64,000 nt of DNA from a bacterium (GTDB taxonomy: Bacteria; Bacillota_I; Bacilli_A; RFN20; CAG-826), in contig CAVEPD010000002.1 of the NCBI GenBank assembly GCA_963617535.1, positions 23,917-87,916 of the forward strand, read 5' to 3'. Made by a program: the position numbers and the translations under genes. The notes under the pieces were generated by a model. It searched no databases. It saw only the letters and a program-made list of their open reading frames with translations, and was not told where the DNA came from. Position 1 is the first letter of the stretch; each line of letters begins with the position of its first letter. Below, one piece after another: positions 1-13,553 of the stretch.

Positions 1-2165
1 TCATTTGCACGGTAAGCGACCTCGCGGATGATCTTTGGAACTACACCCAAAACCGCAACCTGAGATACACGAATTACTTCTCTGTCATTGTGGGCGATGA
101 TGGACGTATCTCTTCTTTCTCCGCTTATGAGAAAGATTCCTCTACTTTTGCTGAGGTTTACGCGGTTGACATCACAAGATTCGACCGTAACGCCTTCACT
201 CCTTATGCCCGTTGGGTTGAGGCGGGCTCTAAGGTGAACACCCGCATCTATGACCTCAAGACCGGATATTCCACTGTTTCCTCCTATAAGCTCAATTACA
301 GCGGCGAGGCCGTTGAGATAAGCGGCGTTGTCTCTGGCTTTGACTACGATGGCGCTTTCTACATCGCTAACGATGATGATAGATGCGGCAGCTGCGGCAT
401 TCGCGTGGTCTTGGAAGATAGCTCCTCTTTGCCTTCCCTTAATGACGTCGTAACCGTGAAAGGCTATATCGATTCGAAGAATTACGTTGCCTATATTGAC
501 GACGCGACGTTTAGCAAGACAGGCGTTGCCACTTACTACCCATATTTCGAAGAAGAGTCGATCGCTGATTATTATGGCGGCGGCTATTACGGGGCTTACG
601 CTTTTGCTAACAACCCCACTTATGGCGGATCGATTTATAGCACTTACGCTTACATCTCCAGCCTTCCGGAAATCCTGGAAGAAGGGAAGAAAGCTACGAT
701 TGGCCTGGTCTGTCCTTCTTATCAAGTTACAGACGGCACCCTTTTCTCCATGCAATTCATTTTGCCTGCCAAGATGCCGCTTTCAGAAAAGGAATCCATC
801 CTTTCGAGCCTAGAGGAATTCGGAATTTACTCCGCGGAGAATAACACCGCCACTGAGGTCTCCATTGAGAAAGTCATCTTCCAATTTGACACGAACGTTG
901 ATTTCTGCGTGACCCTTGAATACGGAAAGAACAGCCGCGTTGGCAAAGCGCTTAGCCCTTCTGAGAAAGTGGAAGACAAGACGGGTCTAAAGGATTTCCC
1001 CTTCCCCTCCGCCTCCCAGTTTAGCTGCTTCCGTTTCGGCGGGGCCAGCGGGATGTTCCTCGAATCCACCTATGGAAGAAGCGAAAGAGAACAACAGGGC
1101 GTTTACTATTATGCTTCTTTGACTTCCAACGAACTTTCCAAAGAGATCAGCGACTTGGAGGCTTATGGCTTTGCTTTGTATGACATCATCAAAGACGATA
1201 ATTCCAAGAAACATTCCATTTACAAGATGAACGACGTTTATGTTGATTTCCGTTCGACCAAGAGCAGTTTCGGCGGCGACTGCTCCGTGGAAATCTGGAT
1301 CTATAAGGGCGAGCTCATCTACAAGGACACAATCAGCGAGATTCTCGCGGAGAAAATCTCCTATTTTGATTCCGATGACTTCATCATCCCCGAAGGATCT
1401 TACCAAGCCGATTTTACTTACTATGACCTTCCTAGCGCAGACGGCCAGAAATTTGAGCATGGTTCTTACATCCCCTGCGTGACTCTTGACGTGGACGAAG
1501 ATATTTTCCAGAGCTTGAGAAAACGTTATCTGAGCGAGAAAGGCTATTCCCTCTATCGCAATTCCGACAACTCGGTCTATACCTACAGGACTCGCGGCTC
1601 CACTCATTACGTGCTTTATAAGAGCATCGAAGGCAGCGATGAGAAAGTGTTCCTCGATATGGTTATGTACCCCACGAACGACTACACCTTCTTGAATCAC
1701 GGGGACTTTGCCTATCGTATTGAGATCATGATTTATAAGGGAACCGCCCCGATGAGTACCCTTTACCAAGACAATCTTGATGAGTACTTCACCATCTTCA
1801 ATGACCGCAACAAGGTGACGAACGGCCTCCCAAATTTCTCCTTGCCCGAAGGAACTAAAGTTGAGATGGTCTACGCTTTGCCTTTAGATACCATGGAGCA
1901 ATTCGAATACACCTACTATGGCTACTTCAGTGATTTGAACGCGTTCGTCTACCCTTCTTCTAATTCCACTTTAGACGCGACCTATACGGCGATTACCGAC
2001 GGCCTTAAAAAGGCGGGATATACGCTTTATAGCACCTCCGAGAAAGGCAACGAAGTCTACCTCTTGGATCAAACGGATGACTATGGAGCCTACATCTTGT
2101 TGATGAAAGACACCTCTAGAAAATTCATCCGTCTTCTTGAGGGCATCGGCGGGGTTGATTTCTAA
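1..2165 (+). CDS. Large hypothetical protein, 5'-truncated at the window edge; rich in Tyr/Gly/Ser/Asp, likely surface or secreted
   Basis: Frame 3 is open from nt 3 through the track's GTG at 90 to TAA at 2163-2165 with no upstream in-frame stop, so the gene begins before the window. No signal peptide is visible inside the window. No recognisable catalytic motif; composition resembles extracellular beta-rich proteins. Confidence 0.5.
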   Translation, partial: ICTVSDLADDLWNYTQNRNLRYTNYFSVIVGDDGRISSFSAYEKDSSTFAEVYAVDITRFDRNAFTPYARWVEAGSKVNTRIYDLKTGYSTVSSYKLNYSGEAVEISGVVSGFDYDGAFYIANDDDRCGSCGIRVVLEDSSSLPSLNDVVTVKGYIDSKNYVAYIDDATFSKTGVATYYPYFEEESIADYYGGGYYGAYAFANNPTYGGSIYSTYAYISSLPEILEEGKKATIGLVCPSYQVTDGTLFSMQFILPAKMPLSEKESILSSLEEFGIYSAENNTATEVSIEKVIFQFDTNVDFCVTLEYGKNSRVGKALSPSEKVEDKTGLKDFPFPSASQFSCFRFGGASGMFLESTYGRSEREQQGVYYYASLTSNELSKEISDLEAYGFALYDIIKDDNSKKHSIYKMNDVYVDFRSTKSSFGGDCSVEIWIYKGELIYKDTISEILAEKISYFDSDDFIIPEGSYQADFTYYDLPSADGQKFEHGSYIPCVTLDVDEDIFQSLRKRYLSEKGYSLYRNSDNSVYTYRTRGSTHYVLYKSIEGSDEKVFLDMVMYPTNDYTFLNHGDFAYRIEIMIYKGTAPMSTLYQDNLDEYFTIFNDRNKVTNGLPNFSLPEGTKVEMVYALPLDTMEQFEYTYYGYFSDLNAFVYPSSNSTLDATYTAITDGLKKAGYTLYSTSEKGNEVYLLDQTDDYGAYILLMKDTSRKFIRLLEGIGGVDF

Positions 2166-2189: not shown

Positions 2190-5100
2190 TTGGCGGATAA
2201 TTCCCTTGTGAAGCCAAAGAAAGAGCAAAAAACAAGCACTCAGCGAGTCATTTCTCTTTCCATCAAAGAAGGGAAATGGCTCTCGATTGTCTATGACTCC
2301 CATAAGGAGAAGAGAGACACTTCTTTTTGGTGTTATGTCCAAGACATCGATCCGAAAAGCAAAACCCTTTTCTGCGATATGTATAACGATTTCAAGGGGA
2401 CGGATACCCTTGAAAACATCTCTTTACGGTTTGATCGAATCAAGTCAGCGATTCTTTTGAATTTCACTACAGGTGGAATAAACAAGGAGCTAATCCACAA
2501 AATCAACGCAGATCTCCCTTCTTTTGCCTGGCTTGAGTATGAAAACTTCGACAATAACATCCTTCGTTATTTGGAACTTTGCTGCCAAATGGACGCGGAT
2601 CCTTGCATAAAAGACACCGCTTTGGTGGATGGAATTGACTCCGATGTCTTGAAAGAAAAAGGCATGTGCAAACTCGACGATTCCCAAATGAAACAAATGG
2701 GCAAATGCGTTAGGCAGAATGAGATTGAGGAATGGAACTCCCGTTATAACGAACTGGCCTTGTCCCGCCTCTCCATCGATATCCAAAACAAGAAATACAT
2801 CGTCGCTTATGAGCCCCTGGCTTTCTCTCCGAAAGACAAATCCATCAAAAAAGTGGGAGGCATACGCCTAAACCCTTCTTTCCTAATCGAAGGGAAGAAG
2901 CATTCGTTATCTACTTACACCGAGATGTCGGCCTCGGAGTTCCTGGATTTGCTGAATGAGAAGTTCATCGAGGCTTCTGAAATCATCCGCGAATCTCTTC
3001 GGAAAAATGAGATAATCGATACACGTCCTAACTTCTTTTGTCTTTCAAAGGAATATCAGATTGATTTTGCGACCTTGTTTGAGAAGATTGAACAAAAATG
3101 GGCAAAGGGAGAACTCGAAGCTCCTTTGAGAGCGTTCTTCGGAAACACTTCTTATGCGGATAACGGCAAGAGAAAGCCCGGGATTGTTTTGTTCGATACG
3201 CACGTGAACGCCGATCAGGCTTTCGCCATCTATAGCGCTCTCAAAAACAAAGTCACCTACGTCCAAGGCCCGCCGGGAACAGGGAAGACCTGCACGATCT
3301 TCAACGTCATTCTCTCTTGTTTCTTTGATGGCAAAACCGTCTTGGTCTCCACCAATAACAACAGGCCATTAGACGGCATCGCCGCGAAGCTTCACTTCGT
3401 AGAGGAAGGAGAAGAAATCCCCTTCCCTTATCTTCGCCTTGGGAACAGGCAGGTGAACCAGACTGCTTTAGACACCTTGAAACGATATTTCGCCTCATCT
3501 TTCAAACCATCTTTAACTCTCAGCGAGTTAGACGAACTGAGAAAGAGAGTCCTTGGGAAGAACAAGCAAGCCGTTGATAACCTCACTTCCTTCATGCAAC
3601 GGAAATCCCTTTTGGATAACTTGTCTTTCCTAGACAAGGTATCCTCACTCGATGCCAAAAAGAAAATCATCGCCAAAGAAAGGGGCGTCATCGAGGGGAA
3701 ACTAGCAAAGCTTCCGGAAATCGAGGAGAAAGAAATTATCTCTAGCTTCGTATCCCTTAGTAACGACAAAGAAGCTCTCACTTATTTGAAGGAGTCCTCC
3801 ATCCGTTGTTTGTCACGTCTTTCCTCCCCGGATTTCGATGAGCTGCGTTCAATCGTGTTCAAAGAGAGCCCGGATAGGCGTCTTACGATGTTTAATTCCT
3901 TCCTAAGGAACGACAAGAACGTCGCGCTTCTCACCACCGCTTTCCCCGTTCTTTTCACGACGAATATCTCAAGTGAGAAGCTCGGCACCGCGGATTTCCT
4001 TTTTGATTTGGTGATTATGGACGAAGCGGGTCAAGCGGATGTGGCAAAGTCTCTTTTGCCAATCTCTCGCGGCAAATCCCTTCTTCTTGTCGGTGACGAG
4101 GATCAGCTACTTCCAGTGATAGATGTCGATCCGTCTGTGAACGAGTCAATCCGCAAAGAGTATGAAGTAGCCGAGACCTATGACTACATCAGCAATTCGA
4201 TATTATCGACGATGAAGGCTGCCGATAAAGTCAGCAACCGCGTTTTGCTTCGCTCGCATTACCGCTGTGGCAAGAAAATTATTGGATTCAGCAACAGCTA
4301 TTTCTATGGCAAGCAGCTGCGCATCAGCCCTGCCCTTGCAGAAGGTGAGATCGCTTTTTGCCCTTCTTACAACAAGGTGAAAGCTCCATTGCGAAACCAG
4401 AATTTCCAGGAGGCCGCAAACGTCGTCTCTTACGTAGAAAAGTACGGCGAAAAGGACTTGGCCATCATCACCCCGTTCGTGAACCAGGCTTGCCTAATCA
4501 ACTCTTTGCTCGCGAAAAAAGGAATCGAAGGCGTGAAGGCTGCGACCATTCATTCCGTCCAAGGAGACGAGAAGGGAACCGTTCTCATTTCAGCAGGCAT
4601 CTCTTCTTCTTCCTCGAAAAGGACCGTCGAATGGCTCAATAGCCATGGGGAAATCGCCAATGTAGCGACGTCTCGTGCGAAAAAGAAACTTGTGGTGTTC
4701 GGCGACCAGGCCTCTTTGAAAAAGATGAGCACGGGTGATAGCGTCTGGAATTCTCTTTTCGAATACTGCGGGGCCAAAGGGCAGGTCGAGGTGATCCCTC
4801 CTAGCTATGAAAACGCGGAGATAGGTAAAAGCAACGGCAGTCTGACGGAAGACGAATTCTATAAAACAATTGCTCATATCGTCTCGGTTAGAGGCAATAT
4901 CTCCGTGGTCAGGAACGTGCCAATAAAAGACGTGCTAGGAGAGGAATATAGCGGGGATTTGCGGGAATTTGATTCCGTTATCTACGCAAAAGCCCTGTTT
5001 TCTCCCAAGAAGCCAATCTTCGCTTTCGAGTTCGATGGAGGCGAGCATTACAAGGATGTGAACCGCATCAAGAGCGATAAAAAGAAGGCGAAAGACTGTA

Positions 5101-5225
5101 AAGAGAAAGGCCTTCGCTTGATCCGAATCCCCAATTCTTACTGCAAGGATTACGAATTCCTGAAGGCTCTGATTGAAGATTACTCCAAGGATGTTAGCGA
5201 AGGCGAACAGCTAACGCTGTTTTGA
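2190..5225 (+). CDS. WYL-like N-terminus + Upf1-like SF1B helicase + C-terminal DUF559/Vsr-like PD-(D/E)xK endonuclease; candidate defence helicase-nuclease
   Basis: Walker A VQGPPGTGKT; motif II DLVIMDEAGQ; GDEDQLLPV (motif III-like); HYRC (IV); SVQGDEKGTV (V); NVATSRAKKKL (VI). This is the Upf1/AAA_11-AAA_12 pattern. The C-terminus FAFEFDGGEHY...GLRLIRI fits the DUF559 endonuclease signature. The N-terminal region carries FWCYVQDID and LRFDRIKS, resembling a WYL domain (FRxDRI). Start is TTG at 2190 with no obvious RBS. Confidence 0.75.
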   Translation: MADNSLVKPKKEQKTSTQRVISLSIKEGKWLSIVYDSHKEKRDTSFWCYVQDIDPKSKTLFCDMYNDFKGTDTLENISLRFDRIKSAILLNFTTGGINKELIHKINADLPSFAWLEYENFDNNILRYLELCCQMDADPCIKDTALVDGIDSDVLKEKGMCKLDDSQMKQMGKCVRQNEIEEWNSRYNELALSRLSIDIQNKKYIVAYEPLAFSPKDKSIKKVGGIRLNPSFLIEGKKHSLSTYTEMSASEFLDLLNEKFIEASEIIRESLRKNEIIDTRPNFFCLSKEYQIDFATLFEKIEQKWAKGELEAPLRAFFGNTSYADNGKRKPGIVLFDTHVNADQAFAIYSALKNKVTYVQGPPGTGKTCTIFNVILSCFFDGKTVLVSTNNNRPLDGIAAKLHFVEEGEEIPFPYLRLGNRQVNQTALDTLKRYFASSFKPSLTLSELDELRKRVLGKNKQAVDNLTSFMQRKSLLDNLSFLDKVSSLDAKKKIIAKERGVIEGKLAKLPEIEEKEIISSFVSLSNDKEALTYLKESSIRCLSRLSSPDFDELRSIVFKESPDRRLTMFNSFLRNDKNVALLTTAFPVLFTTNISSEKLGTADFLFDLVIMDEAGQADVAKSLLPISRGKSLLLVGDEDQLLPVIDVDPSVNESIRKEYEVAETYDYISNSILSTMKAADKVSNRVLLRSHYRCGKKIIGFSNSYFYGKQLRISPALAEGEIAFCPSYNKVKAPLRNQNFQEAANVVSYVEKYGEKDLAIITPFVNQACLINSLLAKKGIEGVKAATIHSVQGDEKGTVLISAGISSSSSKRTVEWLNSHGEIANVATSRAKKKLVVFGDQASLKKMSTGDSVWNSLFEYCGAKGQVEVIPPSYENAEIGKSNGSLTEDEFYKTIAHIVSVRGNISVVRNVPIKDVLGEEYSGDLREFDSVIYAKALFSPKKPIFAFEFDGGEHYKDVNRIKSDKKKAKDCKEKGLRLIRIPNSYCKDYEFLKALIEDYSKDVSEGEQLTLF

Positions 5226-7317: not shown

Positions 7318-9216
7318 ATGAAAACAAGAATCCAAGATGACCTCTACCACGCGGTAAACGGGGAATGGCTTGAGAAAGCCGTGATCCCGGATGACCGCCC
7401 TACTTGTGGCGGTTTCTCTGATCTCAATGAGAACGTGGAGAAAACCCTGAGAGCGGACTTCGCCTCCTTTGCTAAAGGCGAGAAGGACATCCCTTCACCC
7501 GAGGTTGGCGAAGCCGTGAAGCTCTACAACCTCTATTTGGACGTCGAAAAGAGAAATAAGGAGGGTATTGCGCCGGTATTGCCGTCTTTGAAGATGATTC
7601 AGGACGTTAAATCCGTGGACGATTTAAGCGCAAAAGCCAAGGATTTCGAGCTTGCAGGCATTCCTCTCCCCTTCAATTCCGGGGTGACGGAGGACATGAA
7701 AGACGCTACCAAATATTGCTTTGTCTTGCTTGGGCCAAGCACCATCTTGCCAGACACTTCTTATTACGCGGAAGGCAACGAAGCTGGGAAACAACTCCTT
7801 GCTGTCTATTCTCAGATGGTCGCTTCTCTTCTGGCCATGACTTCCTTAAGCGAAGAAGAACAAAAGACATATCTTAGTGATTGCTTAGCCTTCGATGCCT
7901 TGGTGGCGAAGCAAGTGAAAAGCCAAGTCGAATGGGCGGATTACGTGAAGAACCATAATCCGATGGACCTGGAGAAAGTGGATGGCTACATGAAACCCTT
8001 CTCCTTCAAGACCTATCTTGCTTCCATCTTTGGGGACAAAATCCCCTCCATTATCGTGGTTTATGACCCAAAAGCCATCGAGAATTTCTCAGCTTATTTC
8101 AACGAGAAGAACCTTCCTTTGTATCTTCACTGGGCTTACTGCAAAACCTTGCTTGCCGGCGCTAAGTATTGCTCCGAGCAAACCCATGAGATCTCGACAA
8201 TCTATAACCGCACCTTGATGGGCGTTCCTAAGGATCCCGTCTTAGATAAGCAGGCCTATCAGCTTTGCTCTACTCTCTTCTCCGACCCCATTGGTATCTA
8301 CTATGGAAAGACCTACTTCGGGGAAGAGGCGAAGAAAGACGTCGTCTCCTTGGTGAAGAAAATCATCGAAACCTACAAAGGCAGGATGGCCAAGAACTCC
8401 TTCCTCAAAGAGGCCACGAAAGAAAAGGCGATTCTCAAGCTTTCGACCATCGAAATCAAAATGGGTTACCCCGACAAAGGCGATCCCTTCTACTCTACCT
8501 TAAAGGTCGATGAAGGCGATTCATTGTTGGATAACATTACCAAAATCGGCGCAAAAGCCGTCCAAAGAGACTGGAATAAGCTTTATTTGCCGGTCGACCG
8601 TAGCCGTTGGGGCATGCCTGGCCATATGGTCAATGCCTGTTATAACCCCTCCGCCAACGACATTACCTTCCCTGCGGCGATCCTCCAAAAGCCCTTCTAT
8701 GGCTTAGATCAAAGCGAGGAAGAAAATCTCGGTGGCATTGGCGCGGTCATTGGCCACGAAATCAGCCACGCCTTCGATAACAATGGCGCTTCTTTCGATG
8801 AGACTGGCAGCCTCAACAATTGGTGGTCGGAAGAAGATTACGCCGCCTTCAACGCCCTCACGAAGAAGATGATTGAGGAATTCGATGGTATCGATTTCTA
8901 TGGCGGCAAGGTGAATGGGACTCTCACCGTCAGCGAGAACATCGCTGATAATGGCGGCGTTGGAGTCACCCTTGAGATCATGAAATCCATCCCGAACGCG
9001 GATTATGCGAAATACTTCAAGAACTGGGCGAAAGTTTGGTGCATGAAGGGCAAGCCCCAATACATCCAATATCTTTTGGTTAATGATGTTCATGGGCCCG
9101 CGGAACTCCGCGCGAACATGCAACCTAGAAACTTCCCTGAATGGTACCTCACCTTCGACGTGAAGGAAGGAGATGGCATGTATCTATCTCCTGAGAAACG
9201 CGTCTCCATTTGGTAA
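7318..9216 (+). CDS. pepO: M13 family zinc metalloendopeptidase (PepO-like)
   Basis: HEISHAFD (HExxH) and ENIADNGG (M13 signature ENxADxGG); 632 aa, cytoplasmic PepO-like; AGGAG RBS. Confidence 0.85.
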   Translation: MKTRIQDDLYHAVNGEWLEKAVIPDDRPTCGGFSDLNENVEKTLRADFASFAKGEKDIPSPEVGEAVKLYNLYLDVEKRNKEGIAPVLPSLKMIQDVKSVDDLSAKAKDFELAGIPLPFNSGVTEDMKDATKYCFVLLGPSTILPDTSYYAEGNEAGKQLLAVYSQMVASLLAMTSLSEEEQKTYLSDCLAFDALVAKQVKSQVEWADYVKNHNPMDLEKVDGYMKPFSFKTYLASIFGDKIPSIIVVYDPKAIENFSAYFNEKNLPLYLHWAYCKTLLAGAKYCSEQTHEISTIYNRTLMGVPKDPVLDKQAYQLCSTLFSDPIGIYYGKTYFGEEAKKDVVSLVKKIIETYKGRMAKNSFLKEATKEKAILKLSTIEIKMGYPDKGDPFYSTLKVDEGDSLLDNITKIGAKAVQRDWNKLYLPVDRSRWGMPGHMVNACYNPSANDITFPAAILQKPFYGLDQSEEENLGGIGAVIGHEISHAFDNNGASFDETGSLNNWWSEEDYAAFNALTKKMIEEFDGIDFYGGKVNGTLTVSENIADNGGVGVTLEIMKSIPNADYAKYFKNWAKVWCMKGKPQYIQYLLVNDVHGPAELRANMQPRNFPEWYLTFDVKEGDGMYLSPEKRVSIW

Positions 9217-9231
9217 GCATCTAGACTTGGC

Positions 9232-9262
9232 CTTAGCCCTCGCTTAACCCGAGGGCTTTTTT
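9232..9262 (+). terminator. Rho-independent terminator after pepO
   Basis: Hairpin AGCCCTCG-cttaac-CCGAGGGCT followed by TTTTTTCT. Confidence 0.5.
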
Positions 9263-9310
9263 CTGCTTGTCAAGGCGTCTAATATTTGTCCATCAGCAAG
9301 GAATGGAAAT

Positions 9311-11572
9311 ATGAACAAAACCAAAACGAATCTTCTAGCCGCCTTCTCTATTTGCCTGGCCCTTTTGTCTTCCTGCGGAAATCAAGATCAGACCCCGGAA
9401 GGCTGGGCTTACACGAAGGAGGACATGTCTAAGTTCATATCCCTAGACGCGGTGCTCGTGAACAAGGGGAACAACGTTTTGACCTTTAGCAACGACACGA
9501 ACGTGGCTTTGTTCTCGAATGATTTAAACGAAGACAACGTGATTGTCTATGACATCGACAAAGCCTCGAAAATCTTGGAAGAAAAGAACAAGGAATACGC
9601 GGATTATTCCGTTTTGAAAGAAGCCTCCCTGCCGATTTCCCTCATCGAGACTCTTCCGGATAAAGACGGCTTCAACGTGACTTTCTCTTCTAGCGACTCC
9701 TTGAACTACGGGATGCTGATTAGCTCCTCGGTCACTTGCTCGAAAGAATACATCATGGTAAGCAAAGCCGAGGGCGAGGCCAACTTAGTCTCCGATCCTC
9801 AGTCGATTTTCGAAGAGAATTATCTAAAACAAGGTAGCGGCTGGGACGAAGGAGGGAAGTTCATCTTTCAGATTGTCAGCAACATCGGGACGATCATCGT
9901 CGGAACTGCCGCGGATAACCCTGTTGCGATTCTTTCCGGAACGCTCGGCATCTTGGGCACTCTAGGCGATAATTTCCTTAGCGGCGGGCCCACTATCCAA
10001 AGCGTCATGAACCAGCTTAAAGAGACGGACCGCAAAATCGATGAGCTGAGTGCGAAGCTAGAAAAGAACACTCAGCAACTCGCCAGCGAAATCATCCGCA
10101 CCGAGGCACTTGTCGACCAGACGAACCTCAATACCTTGAACCTTGCGATCAATGACTTCGCGACCAACTGCATTTCGCCCATCAATGTATTTAACCGCAA
10201 CTTGGGTGATGAAGTTGGTTCCTATTACCGGGATTTCGTGCAAACCTCCGAGACGGTGAACCTTGCATTAGAGAAAACTTCCGCAGGAGAATGGACTTCG
10301 ACCTCTTTGACGGATATAAGCGATGACTCCGCGTACAACTTTTCTCTCACCATCGGCGATTTCCCTAACGCGAAAGCCCATTTGGCCAGCCATAACAACA
10401 TCGTTGAAGAAGGCTTCATGGGTGAGCTCGATAAGGATATCGACGCCTCGATCGCGGCTAAAACTGACCTCCCAGAGGGCATCGACAAAGAGAATCTTCG
10501 CGGCTTCGTCAGCGCGATGATCTACGAGCAATTTATGAAGCAATATTTCTCCACTCATCGAGAGAAAGCCCAGGAATATCAGAACCTGGTGATTGAATTC
10601 GCGGAAAGGATCCTTGGTTTCTCCGGGAAGGTCTCTATCCTAGGGACCTATCTTTCTCGCCTTGAATGCATGTACAACTTCGGAAGCGAGATCAAGCCTC
10701 TCGTCCGCGCTTTAGCGGTCAACCTGCTCAAGATTTTGGACATGAACACTGCTCGCGCCGCCGAGGCTCGCCTTTTCGCCGGAGACTCCTACGCCATGCT
10801 GCAAAACTACTATATCTCCGCTCGTGAAGCGATTCAGAACTTCTACAAAAACGTCGCGGATATGTCTGATTCCTATTCGTTCACGACCTCCGCTTCATTA
10901 AGTGGCGGTTTTTATCATGCTAAATACAGCACCTCCTATTATAACCTTGGCAATCACTGCAGCTTGGGCGTCACTTTCAGCGCCGAGAAGGTCGAGAAGA
11001 ACGATGGAAGCATATTTACGAGCGCTGAAGATATGTCGAAACACACCGGCATCAGTCCAAACGATCATTCCCGAATCGTCACGAGGTGGAACTTGCTTCG
11101 CTCTTCAGGCGCTTCCGATAGCAGCAACGATTATATTCATTACCTTGCGAATTCAAACGTCATCTCCTCTTCCTATTTGGATGCCGCGGAGACCCTCATA
11201 TCGCTTAAAAGTGCGGATTCCTCTTGCTACCGCATCTTGACGAATGATCGGACCGAAAGAGACCTTCACAATACGGATGCCTCCACTTCTTTAGTCTGCG
11301 TCGCTAGAGGCAATCCCAAAGGAGACTATTTCGAGCTAGGAAAGACCTACAACTACAGCAAAACCCATACCGATTCCTATTGGGCGGGCAAAACGTACGA
11401 GGGAGCTTTCATCGCCGCCTCTAGCGGTTCCTCGCTGGGGACCCAAAAGATTGCCTCCTGGGCTCGTTACGCCGAAAACCACTGGTATTGGACGAATGAC
11501 GAGTATTGGTCGTTCACTAGCCGCGACTCGGAAGGCTACTTCTTCTTGATTGACCTGGCCAGCACAAAATAA
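9311..11572 (+). CDS. Large lipoprotein of unknown function (helical N-terminal half with an internal hydrophobic hairpin, beta-rich Tyr/Trp-rich C-terminal half)
   Basis: Signal peptide with lipobox LLSSC-G (MNKTKTNLLAAFSICLALLSSCGN). Coiled-coil-like stretch QLKETDRKIDELSAKLEKNTQQLASEII. Buried hydrophobic segment GTIIVGTAADNPVAILSGTLGILGTLG. No enzymatic motif recognised. Confidence 0.6.
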   Translation: MNKTKTNLLAAFSICLALLSSCGNQDQTPEGWAYTKEDMSKFISLDAVLVNKGNNVLTFSNDTNVALFSNDLNEDNVIVYDIDKASKILEEKNKEYADYSVLKEASLPISLIETLPDKDGFNVTFSSSDSLNYGMLISSSVTCSKEYIMVSKAEGEANLVSDPQSIFEENYLKQGSGWDEGGKFIFQIVSNIGTIIVGTAADNPVAILSGTLGILGTLGDNFLSGGPTIQSVMNQLKETDRKIDELSAKLEKNTQQLASEIIRTEALVDQTNLNTLNLAINDFATNCISPINVFNRNLGDEVGSYYRDFVQTSETVNLALEKTSAGEWTSTSLTDISDDSAYNFSLTIGDFPNAKAHLASHNNIVEEGFMGELDKDIDASIAAKTDLPEGIDKENLRGFVSAMIYEQFMKQYFSTHREKAQEYQNLVIEFAERILGFSGKVSILGTYLSRLECMYNFGSEIKPLVRALAVNLLKILDMNTARAAEARLFAGDSYAMLQNYYISAREAIQNFYKNVADMSDSYSFTTSASLSGGFYHAKYSTSYYNLGNHCSLGVTFSAEKVEKNDGSIFTSAEDMSKHTGISPNDHSRIVTRWNLLRSSGASDSSNDYIHYLANSNVISSSYLDAAETLISLKSADSSCYRILTNDRTERDLHNTDASTSLVCVARGNPKGDYFELGKTYNYSKTHTDSYWAGKTYEGAFIAASSGSSLGTQKIASWARYAENHWYWTNDEYWSFTSRDSEGYFFLIDLASTK

Positions 11573-11707
11573 GCTTATCACCTCCTATCGCCTCTTTTCC
11601 TCAGCTCCTATTTCCTGCAGCCATGTTCGCATATGAGACAAAAAGGGAACGAAATAGCACAATTTCTTTTCTCTATCGTTTTCCGTTTCGCTCATAATAA
11701 TCGCAAA

Positions 11708-11721
11708 TAGGGGCTTAAGCC
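11708..11721. promoter_or_regulatory. Perfect 14-bp palindrome GGGGCTTAAGCCCC, ~25 bp upstream of fucI (possible operator or small hairpin)
   Basis: Seen directly in sequence between the lipoprotein gene and fucI. No U-tract follows, so it is unlikely to be a terminator. Confidence 0.25.
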
Positions 11722-11744
11722 CCATTGAAAGGAAAAGTTAAGAC

Positions 11745-13553
11745 ATGGAATCTAAATCTCGTCTTATCGGTGGATACCCCGTTATCGGCATCCGCCCGAC
11801 CATCGATGGCAGAAGAGGACCTCTCAAAGTCAGAGAGTCTTTGGAAGACCAAACGATGGGCATGGCTCTTGCGGCCAAAAAATTGCTTGAGGAAAACATC
11901 CGTTATAGCGACGGAACGCCCGTTAAGGTCGTCATCGCTCCTTCGACCATTGGCCGCGTCCCTGAAAGCGCCGCCTGCGCCGAATATTTCAAAAAGGAAG
12001 GCGTCGACATCACTTTGACCGTCACTCCTTGCTGGTGCTATGGCGCGGAAACCATGGACATGGATCCGATGACCATCAAAGCCGTTTGGGGCTTCAATGG
12101 CACTGAGCGTCCAGGCGCGGTTTATCTTGCCTCCGTCCTCGCCACCCACGCCCAAAAAGGCCTTCCTGCTTTCGGAATCTATGGCCACGAGGTTCAGGAC
12201 AAAGACGATAACAGCATCCCTGACGATGTCAAAACCAAGATCCTCCGTTTCGCCCGCGCCGCGGTCGCGGCTGCCACTCTCCGTGGCAAGAGCTACCTCC
12301 AGATCGGCTCTGCCACCATGGGCATCGGCGGTTCTCTCATAAACTATGACTTCATGGAAGAATACCTCGGTCTCCGCGTTGAAAGCGTCGACGAGGTTGA
12401 AATCATCCGTCGCATGACCTTGGGCATCTATGACCACAAGGAATACGAGCGTGCCCTTGCTTGGGTGAAAAAGAACTGCCACCCTGGCATCGACAAGAAC
12501 CCCAAGGAACTTCAGCGCAGCGCCGAACAAAAAGAAAAAGACTGGGAATTCACGGTCAAGATGTGCTGCATCATCAAAGACCTCTATAACGGGAACAAGA
12601 ACCTCCCCGAAGGCTGTGAAGAAGAAGCTCTTGGCCACAACGCGATCGTCGGTGGCTTCCAAGGCCAGCGTCAATGGACCGACTTCTATCCTAACTGCGA
12701 CTTCCCTGAAGCGATTCTTAACAGCACCTTCGACTGGGTCGGCGCGAGAGAACCCTATACCCTCGCTACCGAGAACGACACTCTTAACGGCATCGGTATG
12801 CTCTTCGAGCGTCTCCTCAATGGCCGCGCTTCTATTTTCGCCGATGTCCGCACCTATTGGTCGGGCTCTAGCGTCAAGCGCGTCACTGGCTACGACATCG
12901 AAGGCCACGCCAAAGAAGCGGATGGCTTCCTCCATCTCATCAATAGCGGCGCGCAGTGCATCGATGCCTGCGGCGAAGTCACTGACAAGAACGGCAACCA
13001 CGTCATGAAGCCCTGGTGGGAGATGACGGATGAAGATATCAAGAAGTGCATGGACGCCACCACTTGGCCCTATGCTGACCTTGGCTACTTCCGTGGCGGC
13101 GGATACAGCTCCCGCTACCTCACCCGTGCTGAAATGCCGATGACCATGATTCGTCTCGACATCGTGAAGGGCCTTGGACCTGTCCTCCAAATCGTTGAAG
13201 GCTATAGCGTCCATCTTCCTGACGAAGTCAGCGACACCCTTTGGAAGAGAACTGACTACACCTGGCCCTGCACCTGGTTTGCTCCTCGCTGCAACGGCAA
13301 AGGCTACTTCACCAGCGCTTACGAAGTCATGAACCATTGGGGTGCCAACCACGGCGCCATCACCTATGGCCACATCGGTGCGGATCTCCTCACCCTTGCT
13401 TCCATCCTCCGCATCCCTGTCGCGATGCATAACGTCGACGACAAAGACGTCTATCGTCCGGCTTCTTGGGGATTATTCGGAAGCGATCTCGAAGGCCAGG
13501 ACTATCGCGCTTGCGAAGCTTATGGCCCGATGTACAAAAACATCCGCAAATAA
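11745..13553 (+). CDS. fucI: L-fucose isomerase
   Basis: Alignable along its length to E. coli FucI from memory: [66 protein letters not shown]; about 600 aa. Confidence 0.9.

Follow-up and report, generated by a model that had tools for sequence, protein, structure and literature searches.

The Hhe single-gene system, which Gao and colleagues reportedly described in 2020, is said to combine a helicase with a Vsr endonuclease, and the nuclease of the Mokosh systems is of the phospholipase D (PLD) type. Nhi consists of an N-terminal HsdR-like nuclease and a DUF2075 helicase of superfamily 1 (SF1) within a protein of about 610 amino acids, and several of the systems Nhi, Hna, HmaA and DdmD respond to phage single-stranded DNA (ssDNA)-binding proteins or to replication intermediates (PMC11232893). 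In the CnuH proteins of type III-B CoCoNuT systems, which are predicted to target RNA, a helicase bearing a coiled-coil insertion is preceded by an N-terminal nucleic acid-binding domain and an oligonucleotide/oligosaccharide-binding (OB) fold, and a Vsr-like nuclease is fused to it (PMC11090510). A WYL domain is known to act as an ssDNA-binding regulator of a superfamily 1B (SF1B) helicase, TePif1 (PMC6628001), and fusions of WYL domains with SF1 helicases were listed in 2014 in a defense-oriented comparative genomic study (PMC4012209). Here we describe a gene from a 64,000-nucleotide stretch (hereafter, the window) of contig CAVEPD010000002.1 (GenBank assembly GCA_963617535.1, positions 23,917 to 87,916) of a bacterium of the CAG-826 lineage, which encodes a Upf1-like SF1B helicase with a WYL-like N-terminal barrel and a C-terminal Vsr-like nuclease domain of the DUF2726 type. 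No description of this architecture was found in the literature.

The preliminary description of this DNA, which was made from the sequence alone, assigned the gene an open reading frame (ORF) of 1011 codons, and both the ORF list and the translation bear this out: the frame runs uninterrupted on the plus strand from a TTG codon to the stop (Table 1). The database gene call (P0001), 100% identical to the window protein, starts at the GTG and is 1005 amino acids long, and P0333, from the same cluster, starts at TTG and has 1011 amino acids; the choice of the start is immaterial because residues 1-8 are disordered in the structural model. Residue numbers below refer to the 1005-amino-acid form unless stated otherwise. 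On contig CAVIAY010000002.1 of the metagenome-assembled genome GCA_963640735.1, the start of the window falls at position 2330. All the motifs quoted in the preliminary description were found in the translation and their coordinates checked, namely, GPPGTGKT, DEAGQ and EFDGGEH, along with GDEDQLLP, HYRC, QGDEKG, VATSRAKKKL, FEFDGGEH, FWCYVQDID and LRFDRIKS. The three-module architecture outlined there, with a WYL-like region, a helicase and a DUF559/Vsr-like nuclease, is essentially right, although two of the three hidden Markov model tests that accompanied it, those for WYL and DUF559, fail as worded.

Table 1. Features of the helicase-nuclease gene (coordinates in the window)
Feature	Coordinates	Strand	Remarks
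Whole gene	2190..5225	+	1011 codons from TTG 2190 or 1005 from GTG 2208, plus stop
WYL-like Sm-fold barrel, residues 10-85	2235..2462	+	One helix and five strands; predicted single-stranded nucleic acid/ligand sensor
Family-specific alpha/beta region, residues 90-330	2475..3197	+	Five-strand barrel (~179-233) flanked by helices
RecA1 domain (AAA_11)	3201..4121	+	Walker A GPPGTGKT 3267-3290; motif II DEAGQ 4020-4034
Helical insertion, 165 residues (414-578)	3447-3941	+	Between Walker A and motif II; from the whole-protein model
RecA2 domain (AAA_12)	4203..4709	+	HYRC, QGDEKG, VATSRAKKKL; Pfam AAA_12
Vsr-like PD-(D/E)xK nuclease, DUF2726 type	4848..5174	+	EFD 4965-4973; EFDGGEH 5028-5048

The window protein is a complete Upf1-like SF1B helicase, as indicated by the concordant results of profile, structure and sequence comparisons. 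The Pfam domains AAA_11 (92.5 bits, E=4.9e-26) and AAA_12 (64.7 bits, E=1.1e-17; cut-off 27) both score above the gathering threshold, Walker A, motif II and motif VI are intact, and both domains were matched in 44 of the 44 aligned family members. With these E-values and hundreds of full-length homologs, the match is far above the chance level. When the whole protein was modeled with AlphaFold2 from the 44-sequence alignment (mean predicted local distance difference test score, pLDDT, of 82), the best fold matches in the PDB (Foldseek, E ~1e-22 to 1e-23) were Senataxin, IGHMBP2, UPF1, Sen1 and Dna2. A PDB sequence search agrees, and the original assignment of the motor is fully confirmed. The large helical insertion between Walker A and motif II (Table 1) resembles that in the UPF1-like CnuH helicases, which carry a similar helical or coiled-coil insertion after Walker A (PMC11090510).

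The C-terminal nuclease belongs to the Vsr-like group of PD-(D/E)xK enzymes, as initially proposed, but the Pfam family is DUF2726 (PF10881) rather than DUF559 (PF04480). DUF2726 was matched in 37 of the 44 family members (best E-value 3.2e-8), the isolated C-terminus of the window protein being a borderline case (24.3 bits against the cut-off of 24.7), whereas DUF559 was matched in a single member (E=0.0014) and is not among the Pfam matches of the window protein; the DUF559 identity was rejected accordingly. The VSR, DUF559 and DUF2726 families are grouped together among the PD-(D/E)xK enzymes (PMC3424549), and DUF2726 is a DNase domain of the restriction endonuclease fold that is fused to Abi-type modules (PMC3710099). 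A PDB sequence search with the nuclease region yielded no match; in the whole-protein model, the predicted core has the alpha-beta-beta-beta-alpha-beta topology that is canonical for this superfamily. Nine residues of the region (E881, E920, D922, E941, G944, E946, H947, D957 and K960) are invariant across the family, and G945 is kept in at least 90% of the members. Judging by these sequence patterns, the catalytic constellation looks intact, and the domain can be predicted to be an active nuclease.

The WYL-like nature of the N-terminus was supported at the fold level but not at the level of sequence profiles. The Pfam WYL model (PF13280) gave no match to residues 1-340 of the window protein at E<=10 and matched none of the 44 family members at E<=0.01, so that Pfam WYL membership by profile was rejected; a profile of residues 1-335 compared with the PDB by sequence retrieved no match, and no WYL protein in particular. 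In a separate AlphaFold2 model of residues 1-335 (pLDDT 82.5, with values of about 90 or more over residues 10-100), residues 10-85 comprise one helix followed by five strands that form an Sm-like barrel; in superpositions, solved WYL domains fit this barrel more closely than generic Sm or SH3 barrels do. Several of the matching WYL structures are, according to the entry titles, complexes with ssDNA, and the best-matching ones are DNA-damage regulators bound to ssDNA. The sequence LRFDRIKSA in this region resembles FRxDRI, a signature of WYL domains. We conclude that, as modeled, residues 10-85 adopt a divergent WYL-type Sm barrel fold.

The region that follows, residues 90-330, showed no Pfam match, no PDB sequence match and nothing convincing by fold comparison of the 1-335 model. 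The possibility that it represents an internal duplication of the WYL-like barrel was rejected using hhalign, with probabilities below 2%. From its position, we infer that the barrel and the flanking helices correspond to the 1B (OB) barrel and stalk of Upf1-type helicases, because the alignment with IGHMBP2 begins at chain residue 154, equivalent to query residue 302 in the 1011-amino-acid numbering, and because a 1B OB barrel with a stalk is part of the UPF1/DNA2 family layout (PMC11090510).

The family is uncharacterized but coherent, and patchily distributed. Full-length homologs of about 1,000 amino acids range in identity to the window protein from 92% down to about 30%, and the complete architecture is retained at 30-40% identity across phyla, in Bacillota, Bacteroidota and Coriobacteriaceae. 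The hosts include uncultured Mollicutes/Bacilli, Erysipelotrichaceae, Lachnospiraceae, Gemmiger and Coriobacteriaceae, along with cultured Bacteroidota, namely, Algoriphagus, Cyclobacterium, Chryseolinea, Winogradskyella and Flavobacterium; a truncated copy was detected on a short contig of Treponemataceae. A profile of the N-terminal 335 residues retrieved 458 clusters, counted at 50% identity, among 1.84 billion representatives. The long matches to this profile are all proteins of about 1,000 amino acids with the module at the N-terminus (in one case, near it), and therefore, the WYL-like head occurs only in this architecture. The current annotation of the family does not go beyond 'AAA family ATPase' or 'DNA helicase'.

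Two distant relatives, each with 27% identity, were found outside the family. One (H16; MT835661.1:10382-11827) is encoded on a contig from human feces labeled 'Bacteriophage sp.', and the other (H15; NZ_OY725763.1:32605-33762) on a plasmid of Parabacteroides distasonis; in both, the similarity begins in the latter half of the helicase and continues into the Vsr-like nuclease (residues 523-953 of the query for H16 and 579-950 for H15). Thus, helicase-nuclease cousins with other N-termini occur on mobile DNA.

When compared with the curated models of known defense systems, the window protein yields partial matches to the helicase core, all far below the curated cut-offs of PADLOC and NCBIfam, for MkoC, MkoA, PDC-S37, Hhe, ProA and PLuB. 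The best of the PADLOC matches are to MkoC (3e-43) and MkoA (7e-39), via the helicase core, and these profiles are matched only in part, the best stretch of MkoC being positions 670-951 of 1136. The likeness to Mokosh lies in the Upf1-like helicase core and, for type II, in the fact that MkoC is also a single-protein helicase-nuclease; membership in either type was rejected given that no PLD domain was detected with Pfam and no MkoB or other PADLOC match was found among the neighbors. Nhi gave no PADLOC model match at E<=0.1, and membership in that system was likewise rejected because the nuclease of the window protein is C-terminal and Vsr-like and the helicase is of the AAA_11/AAA_12 type. 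The statement in the preliminary description that the protein is neither Nhi-type nor Mokosh-type thus holds, both systems having been compared and their defining features not found. Nhi, Hna, HmaA and DdmD share with the window protein the combination of a helicase and a PD-(D/E)xK-type nuclease in a single polypeptide (PMC11232893), but Hna, HmaA and DdmD differ in that their helicases belong to superfamily 2 rather than SF1B.

Architecturally, the window protein is closest to type III-B CnuH, with which it was compared by description, and is also close to Hhe. Like the window protein, Hhe is a single large protein with a Upf1-like AAA_11/AAA_12 helicase and a Vsr-like nuclease, and one of the 44 family members weakly matches the Hhe-type nuclease model MTES_1575. 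However, Hhe proteins are about 1,800-1,900 amino acids long and contain DUF4011, and the N-terminus of the window protein is different. Membership in Hhe was rejected because the NCBIfam model (NF042953), which has a cut-off of 2000 bits, gives a score of 77, confined to residues 600-752, and no DUF4011 was detected; the PADLOC model of Hhe (PDLC02194) gives 4e-17 over 140 residues. CnuH shares the N-terminal domain, the OB/1B barrel, the helical insertion after Walker A and the C-terminal Vsr-like nuclease. It differs in being encoded in an operon with an McrB-like CnuB carrying the NxD motif, CnuC, the Hsp70-like CnuD and CnuA, whereas the window family is partner-free, and in possessing an N-terminal Sul7s-like winged helix-turn-helix domain and a mainly alphaproteobacterial distribution, in contrast to the WYL-like head and the spread in Bacillota and Bacteroidota. 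Membership in CoCoNuT III-B was accordingly rejected, with no CnuB, CnuC, CnuD or CnuA among the neighbors and with a distinct N-terminus. Beyond defense systems, Dna2 also combines an SF1B Upf1-like motor with a PD-(D/E)xK nuclease that acts on ssDNA, but its nuclease lies at the N-terminus and belongs to the RecB type. In the SF1B helicase TePif1, the WYL domain has two roles, ssDNA binding and the coupling of ATPase activity with unwinding (PMC6628001), but TePif1 lacks a nuclease and its WYL domain is C-terminal. Outside the motor, neither of these proteins shows any sequence identity with the window protein.

The gene appears to function on its own. An all-against-all BLAST comparison of 237 neighbors from 49 loci revealed no conserved partner gene, so the candidate partners were rejected and the family is best regarded as a single-gene unit. 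We further compared 150 neighbor proteins from 46 loci with PADLOC and Pfam, and in this set, matches to McrBC (two), Drt2, ThsB, prokaryotic Argonaute (two), AbiO (two) and Nhi-like proteins (three) were recorded as raw counts. McrBC adjoins the family gene in loci L021 and L023; a link to CoCoNuT through these genes was rejected because the McrB proteins carry the canonical MNTAD motif, not the NxD motif of CoCoNuT, and McrC retains an active D-x-K motif. Repair-type neighbors are represented by SbcCD in L030 and L047, NERD/HRDC in L002-L006, RNase H (two) and HRDC (three).

In the lineage of the window, the gene is a long-term chromosomal resident that is dispensable. It is followed by genes for a GGDEF protein, confirming this neighbor of the preliminary description, a histidine phosphatase, an M13 peptidase and a fucose isomerase, and is preceded by two predicted lipoprotein genes without Pfam domains. 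The helicase-GGDEF arrangement is kept in five relatives, with the helicase 81-92% identical, making six syntenic genomes including the window. The helicase diverges faster than the nearby Tex protein, with identities of 81% against 93% in one comparison and 57% against 74% in another. In locus L061, where Tex is 89% identical, the whole helicase core is deleted; residues 820-1005 directly follow residues 1-187, and what is left is a pair of ORFs of 201 and 169 amino acids (L061:6786-7911; GCA_963628075.1, CAVGEQ010000004.1), with about 630 codons gone; this remnant could be a real pseudogene or an artifact of metagenome assembly. In locus L064, where Tex is 82% identical, the place upstream of the GGDEF gene where synteny would put the helicase gene shows no trace of it. 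Because the gene is gutted in one relative and absent from another, it can be considered dispensable, and the expectation that it would be variably present among relatives receives a qualified yes. The notion of an accessory pocket holds insofar as the gene was lost or deleted in these two relatives, but not with respect to its surroundings, given the synteny in six genomes, the housekeeping neighborhood and the lack of an adjoining defense gene.

These features can be combined in a scheme in which the WYL-like barrel would bind ssDNA, or possibly RNA, and would either load the enzyme or switch it on allosterically; the Upf1-like SF1B motor would translocate in the 5'->3' direction at the expense of ATP; and the C-terminal DUF2726 nuclease would cut the strand or duplex fed to it by the motor. 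We regard this molecular reading, a 5'->3' helicase-nuclease that senses ssDNA or RNA, as well founded and likely correct. As for the biological role, the protein might be involved in defense, that is, in the surveillance of invading nucleic acid of mobile genetic elements, such as phage or plasmid replication intermediates, a proposal to which we assign somewhat less than an even chance and which would, in terms of logic, group it with Hhe, the type II Mokosh protein MkoC, Hna, Nhi and the helicase of type III-B CoCoNuT. This role is favored because of the precedent of WYL domains in SF1B helicases, the DUF2726 fold, the matches to Mko profiles, the patchy distribution, the presence of some defense neighbors, the losses and the faster divergence compared to Tex. 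More specifically, and more tentatively, the family could represent an unnamed stand-alone immune enzyme, in which a cryptic WYL-type sensor gates the motor and the nuclease against single-stranded replication intermediates; on the same tentative footing, it could be a compact equivalent of Hhe and CnuH III-B that works without partners and is widespread in gut Bacillota and in marine and soil Bacteroidota.

Several observations weigh against a defense role. The neighbors of the gene in the window and in the syntenic relatives, whose surroundings are metabolic or housekeeping, gave no match to PADLOC, the scan of the contig suggested in the preliminary description thus being negative for these genes. 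Many loci elsewhere in the family are plainly housekeeping as well, and in the species that carries P0111, all 24 contigs read present one housekeeping context adjoining GAPDH. Among the PADLOC matches that were recorded across the family, many are cross-hits of SbcC-like or SMC-like ATPases, and probably also of a RecQ-type helicase, so that the defense-island signal is modest; because SbcC/SMC ATPases cross-hit the LmuB, DndD, PbeC, AriA, GajA and mad3 models, naive counts of defense genes are inflated. The helicase gene tracks the Tex phylogeny, which argues for long vertical residence rather than recent transfer. Carriage by mobile elements was rejected as well: the relatives found in viral contigs, phage records and plasmids are partial helicases, none of them a full-length copy. 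Finally, WYL domains also serve in DNA-damage regulators, for example, PafBC and DriD.

Many of these facts would fit a role in genome maintenance, a serious competing reading that we consider less likely than defense: the protein would be a helicase-nuclease resembling Dna2 or Senataxin, with which bacteria process R-loops, hairpins, resected ends or ssDNA flaps, and ssDNA generated by damage would be sensed through the WYL-like head, in the manner of PafBC and DriD. The best structural matches include Dna2, itself an SF1B helicase with a PD-(D/E)xK nuclease, and Senataxin/Sen1, the top WYL matches are DNA-damage regulators on ssDNA, the gene is stable, chromosomal and vertically inherited near Tex amid housekeeping genes, mobile elements lack it, and SbcCD, NERD/HRDC, RNase H and HRDC genes lie next to it at several loci. 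Nevertheless, the family is small and patchily distributed for a core repair function, two close relatives have lost the gene with nothing taking its place at the locus, no repair gene is conserved as a neighbor, the protein diverges faster than Tex, and a Vsr/DUF2726 nuclease, as opposed to one of the RecB/Dna2 type, is typical of conflict systems. That the closest solved relatives (Senataxin, IGHMBP2 and UPF1) are mostly RNA helicases, that MkoA and MkoC are the best PADLOC matches, that type III-B CnuH, which has the same layout, is predicted to target RNA (PMC11090510), and that Tex is a linked gene in the lineage of the window would all be compatible with an enzyme directed against aberrant or foreign RNA, a stand-alone analog of CnuH or Mokosh. 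This possibility appears improbable, considering that Vsr, DUF559 and DUF2726 enzymes of known function act on DNA (PMC3424549, PMC3710099), that the best WYL matches bind ssDNA, that no McrBC, Hsp70-like or HEPN partner is conserved, and that the McrBC pairs at L021 and L023 are canonical, with MNTAD rather than NxD in McrB and D-x-K in McrC. A selfish or mobile-element function, such as that of a homing-type or transfer-related nuclease-helicase, could be entertained given the spread of the family across phyla, the inclusion of homing endonucleases in the Vsr/DUF559 group and the location of DUF2726 genes amid mobile elements in Fusobacteria (PMC3424549), but is highly improbable because integrases, transposases and repeat boundaries do not recur next to the gene, full-length copies are missing from plasmids, phages and viral contigs, and the context within a species is fixed. 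The remaining tenth or so of the probability is not assigned to any role.

If the protein is a defense enzyme, it would represent a compact one-gene system, in which the sensor, the motor and the effector are each separable by point mutation, and a clean model of a WYL-type domain that controls an enzyme directly rather than via transcription. If it is a repair enzyme, it would amount to a bacterial activity akin to that of Dna2 or Senataxin, present in gut lineages that have received little study. In addition, the N-terminal barrel illustrates how WYL-like sensors can escape Pfam profiles entirely and be recovered only by structure prediction.

Some of the family loci contain additional arrangements of note. 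In a clade with 57% identity (L002-L005; gene at 8001-11015), the helicase gene is located directly downstream of Tex and is followed, at 11073-12413, by a 41-amino-acid ORF and a NERD/HRDC gene; some assemblies show the latter as two separate ORFs. Genes for SbcD/SbcC-like or SMC-like ATPases directly adjoin a family member at L030:9075-13492, L047:853-5974 and L011:9257-12796, the hosts of these loci being Hungatella, Bacterium D16-56 and Algoriphagus. A homologous pair of genes, encoding a helicase of 450-620 amino acids and a protein of about 105 amino acids, is found within two genes of a family member at L007:3096-5158, L018:6798-8974 and L043:3603-5801. These pairs probably account for the three DUF2075/SLFN-g3 matches (Nhi/DpdF-like in PADLOC) and the three MazG-like matches, given that the family counts agree, and the DUF2075 helicase with the MazG-like protein may form a recurrent two-gene module, present in three unrelated loci. 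In the species with P0111, the non-coding gap between the helicase gene and GAPDH, upstream of it, is unusually long, at about 850 nucleotides (L063:7149-8001).

The two genes upstream of the helicase gene in the window (window 1-2165; L001:431-4494) encode Ser/Tyr/Asp-rich proteins of 477 and 877 amino acids with the lipoboxes LLLSCG and LLASCGG, respectively, and without Pfam or PADLOC matches. The giant surface-type protein previously noted as a neighbor is the second of these, a predicted lipoprotein without a Pfam domain whose gene is cut by the window start. Close relatives may have the lipoprotein cluster, have only part of it or have none of it (it is missing from L054, and L055 contains an additional 720-amino-acid gene), which makes it a variable cassette. 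An operon with the helicase gene was rejected, these genes being lipoproteins that vary among relatives and have no Pfam or PADLOC match, and a scan for promoters and terminators gave counts at the level of shuffled sequence. At the syntenic site of L064 (4800-6000; ERZ27279214 k141_490392), two short minus-strand fragments, AAA_14 and DUF4143, look like a decayed ATPase gene. Farther downstream in the window, a 571-amino-acid ORF on the minus strand (11715-13553), with no Pfam match, overlaps nearly all of the plus-strand fucose isomerase gene (11745-13553), probably as a shadow ORF; with a G+C content of 0.55-0.56, the isomerase gene lies clearly above its surroundings (about 0.47).

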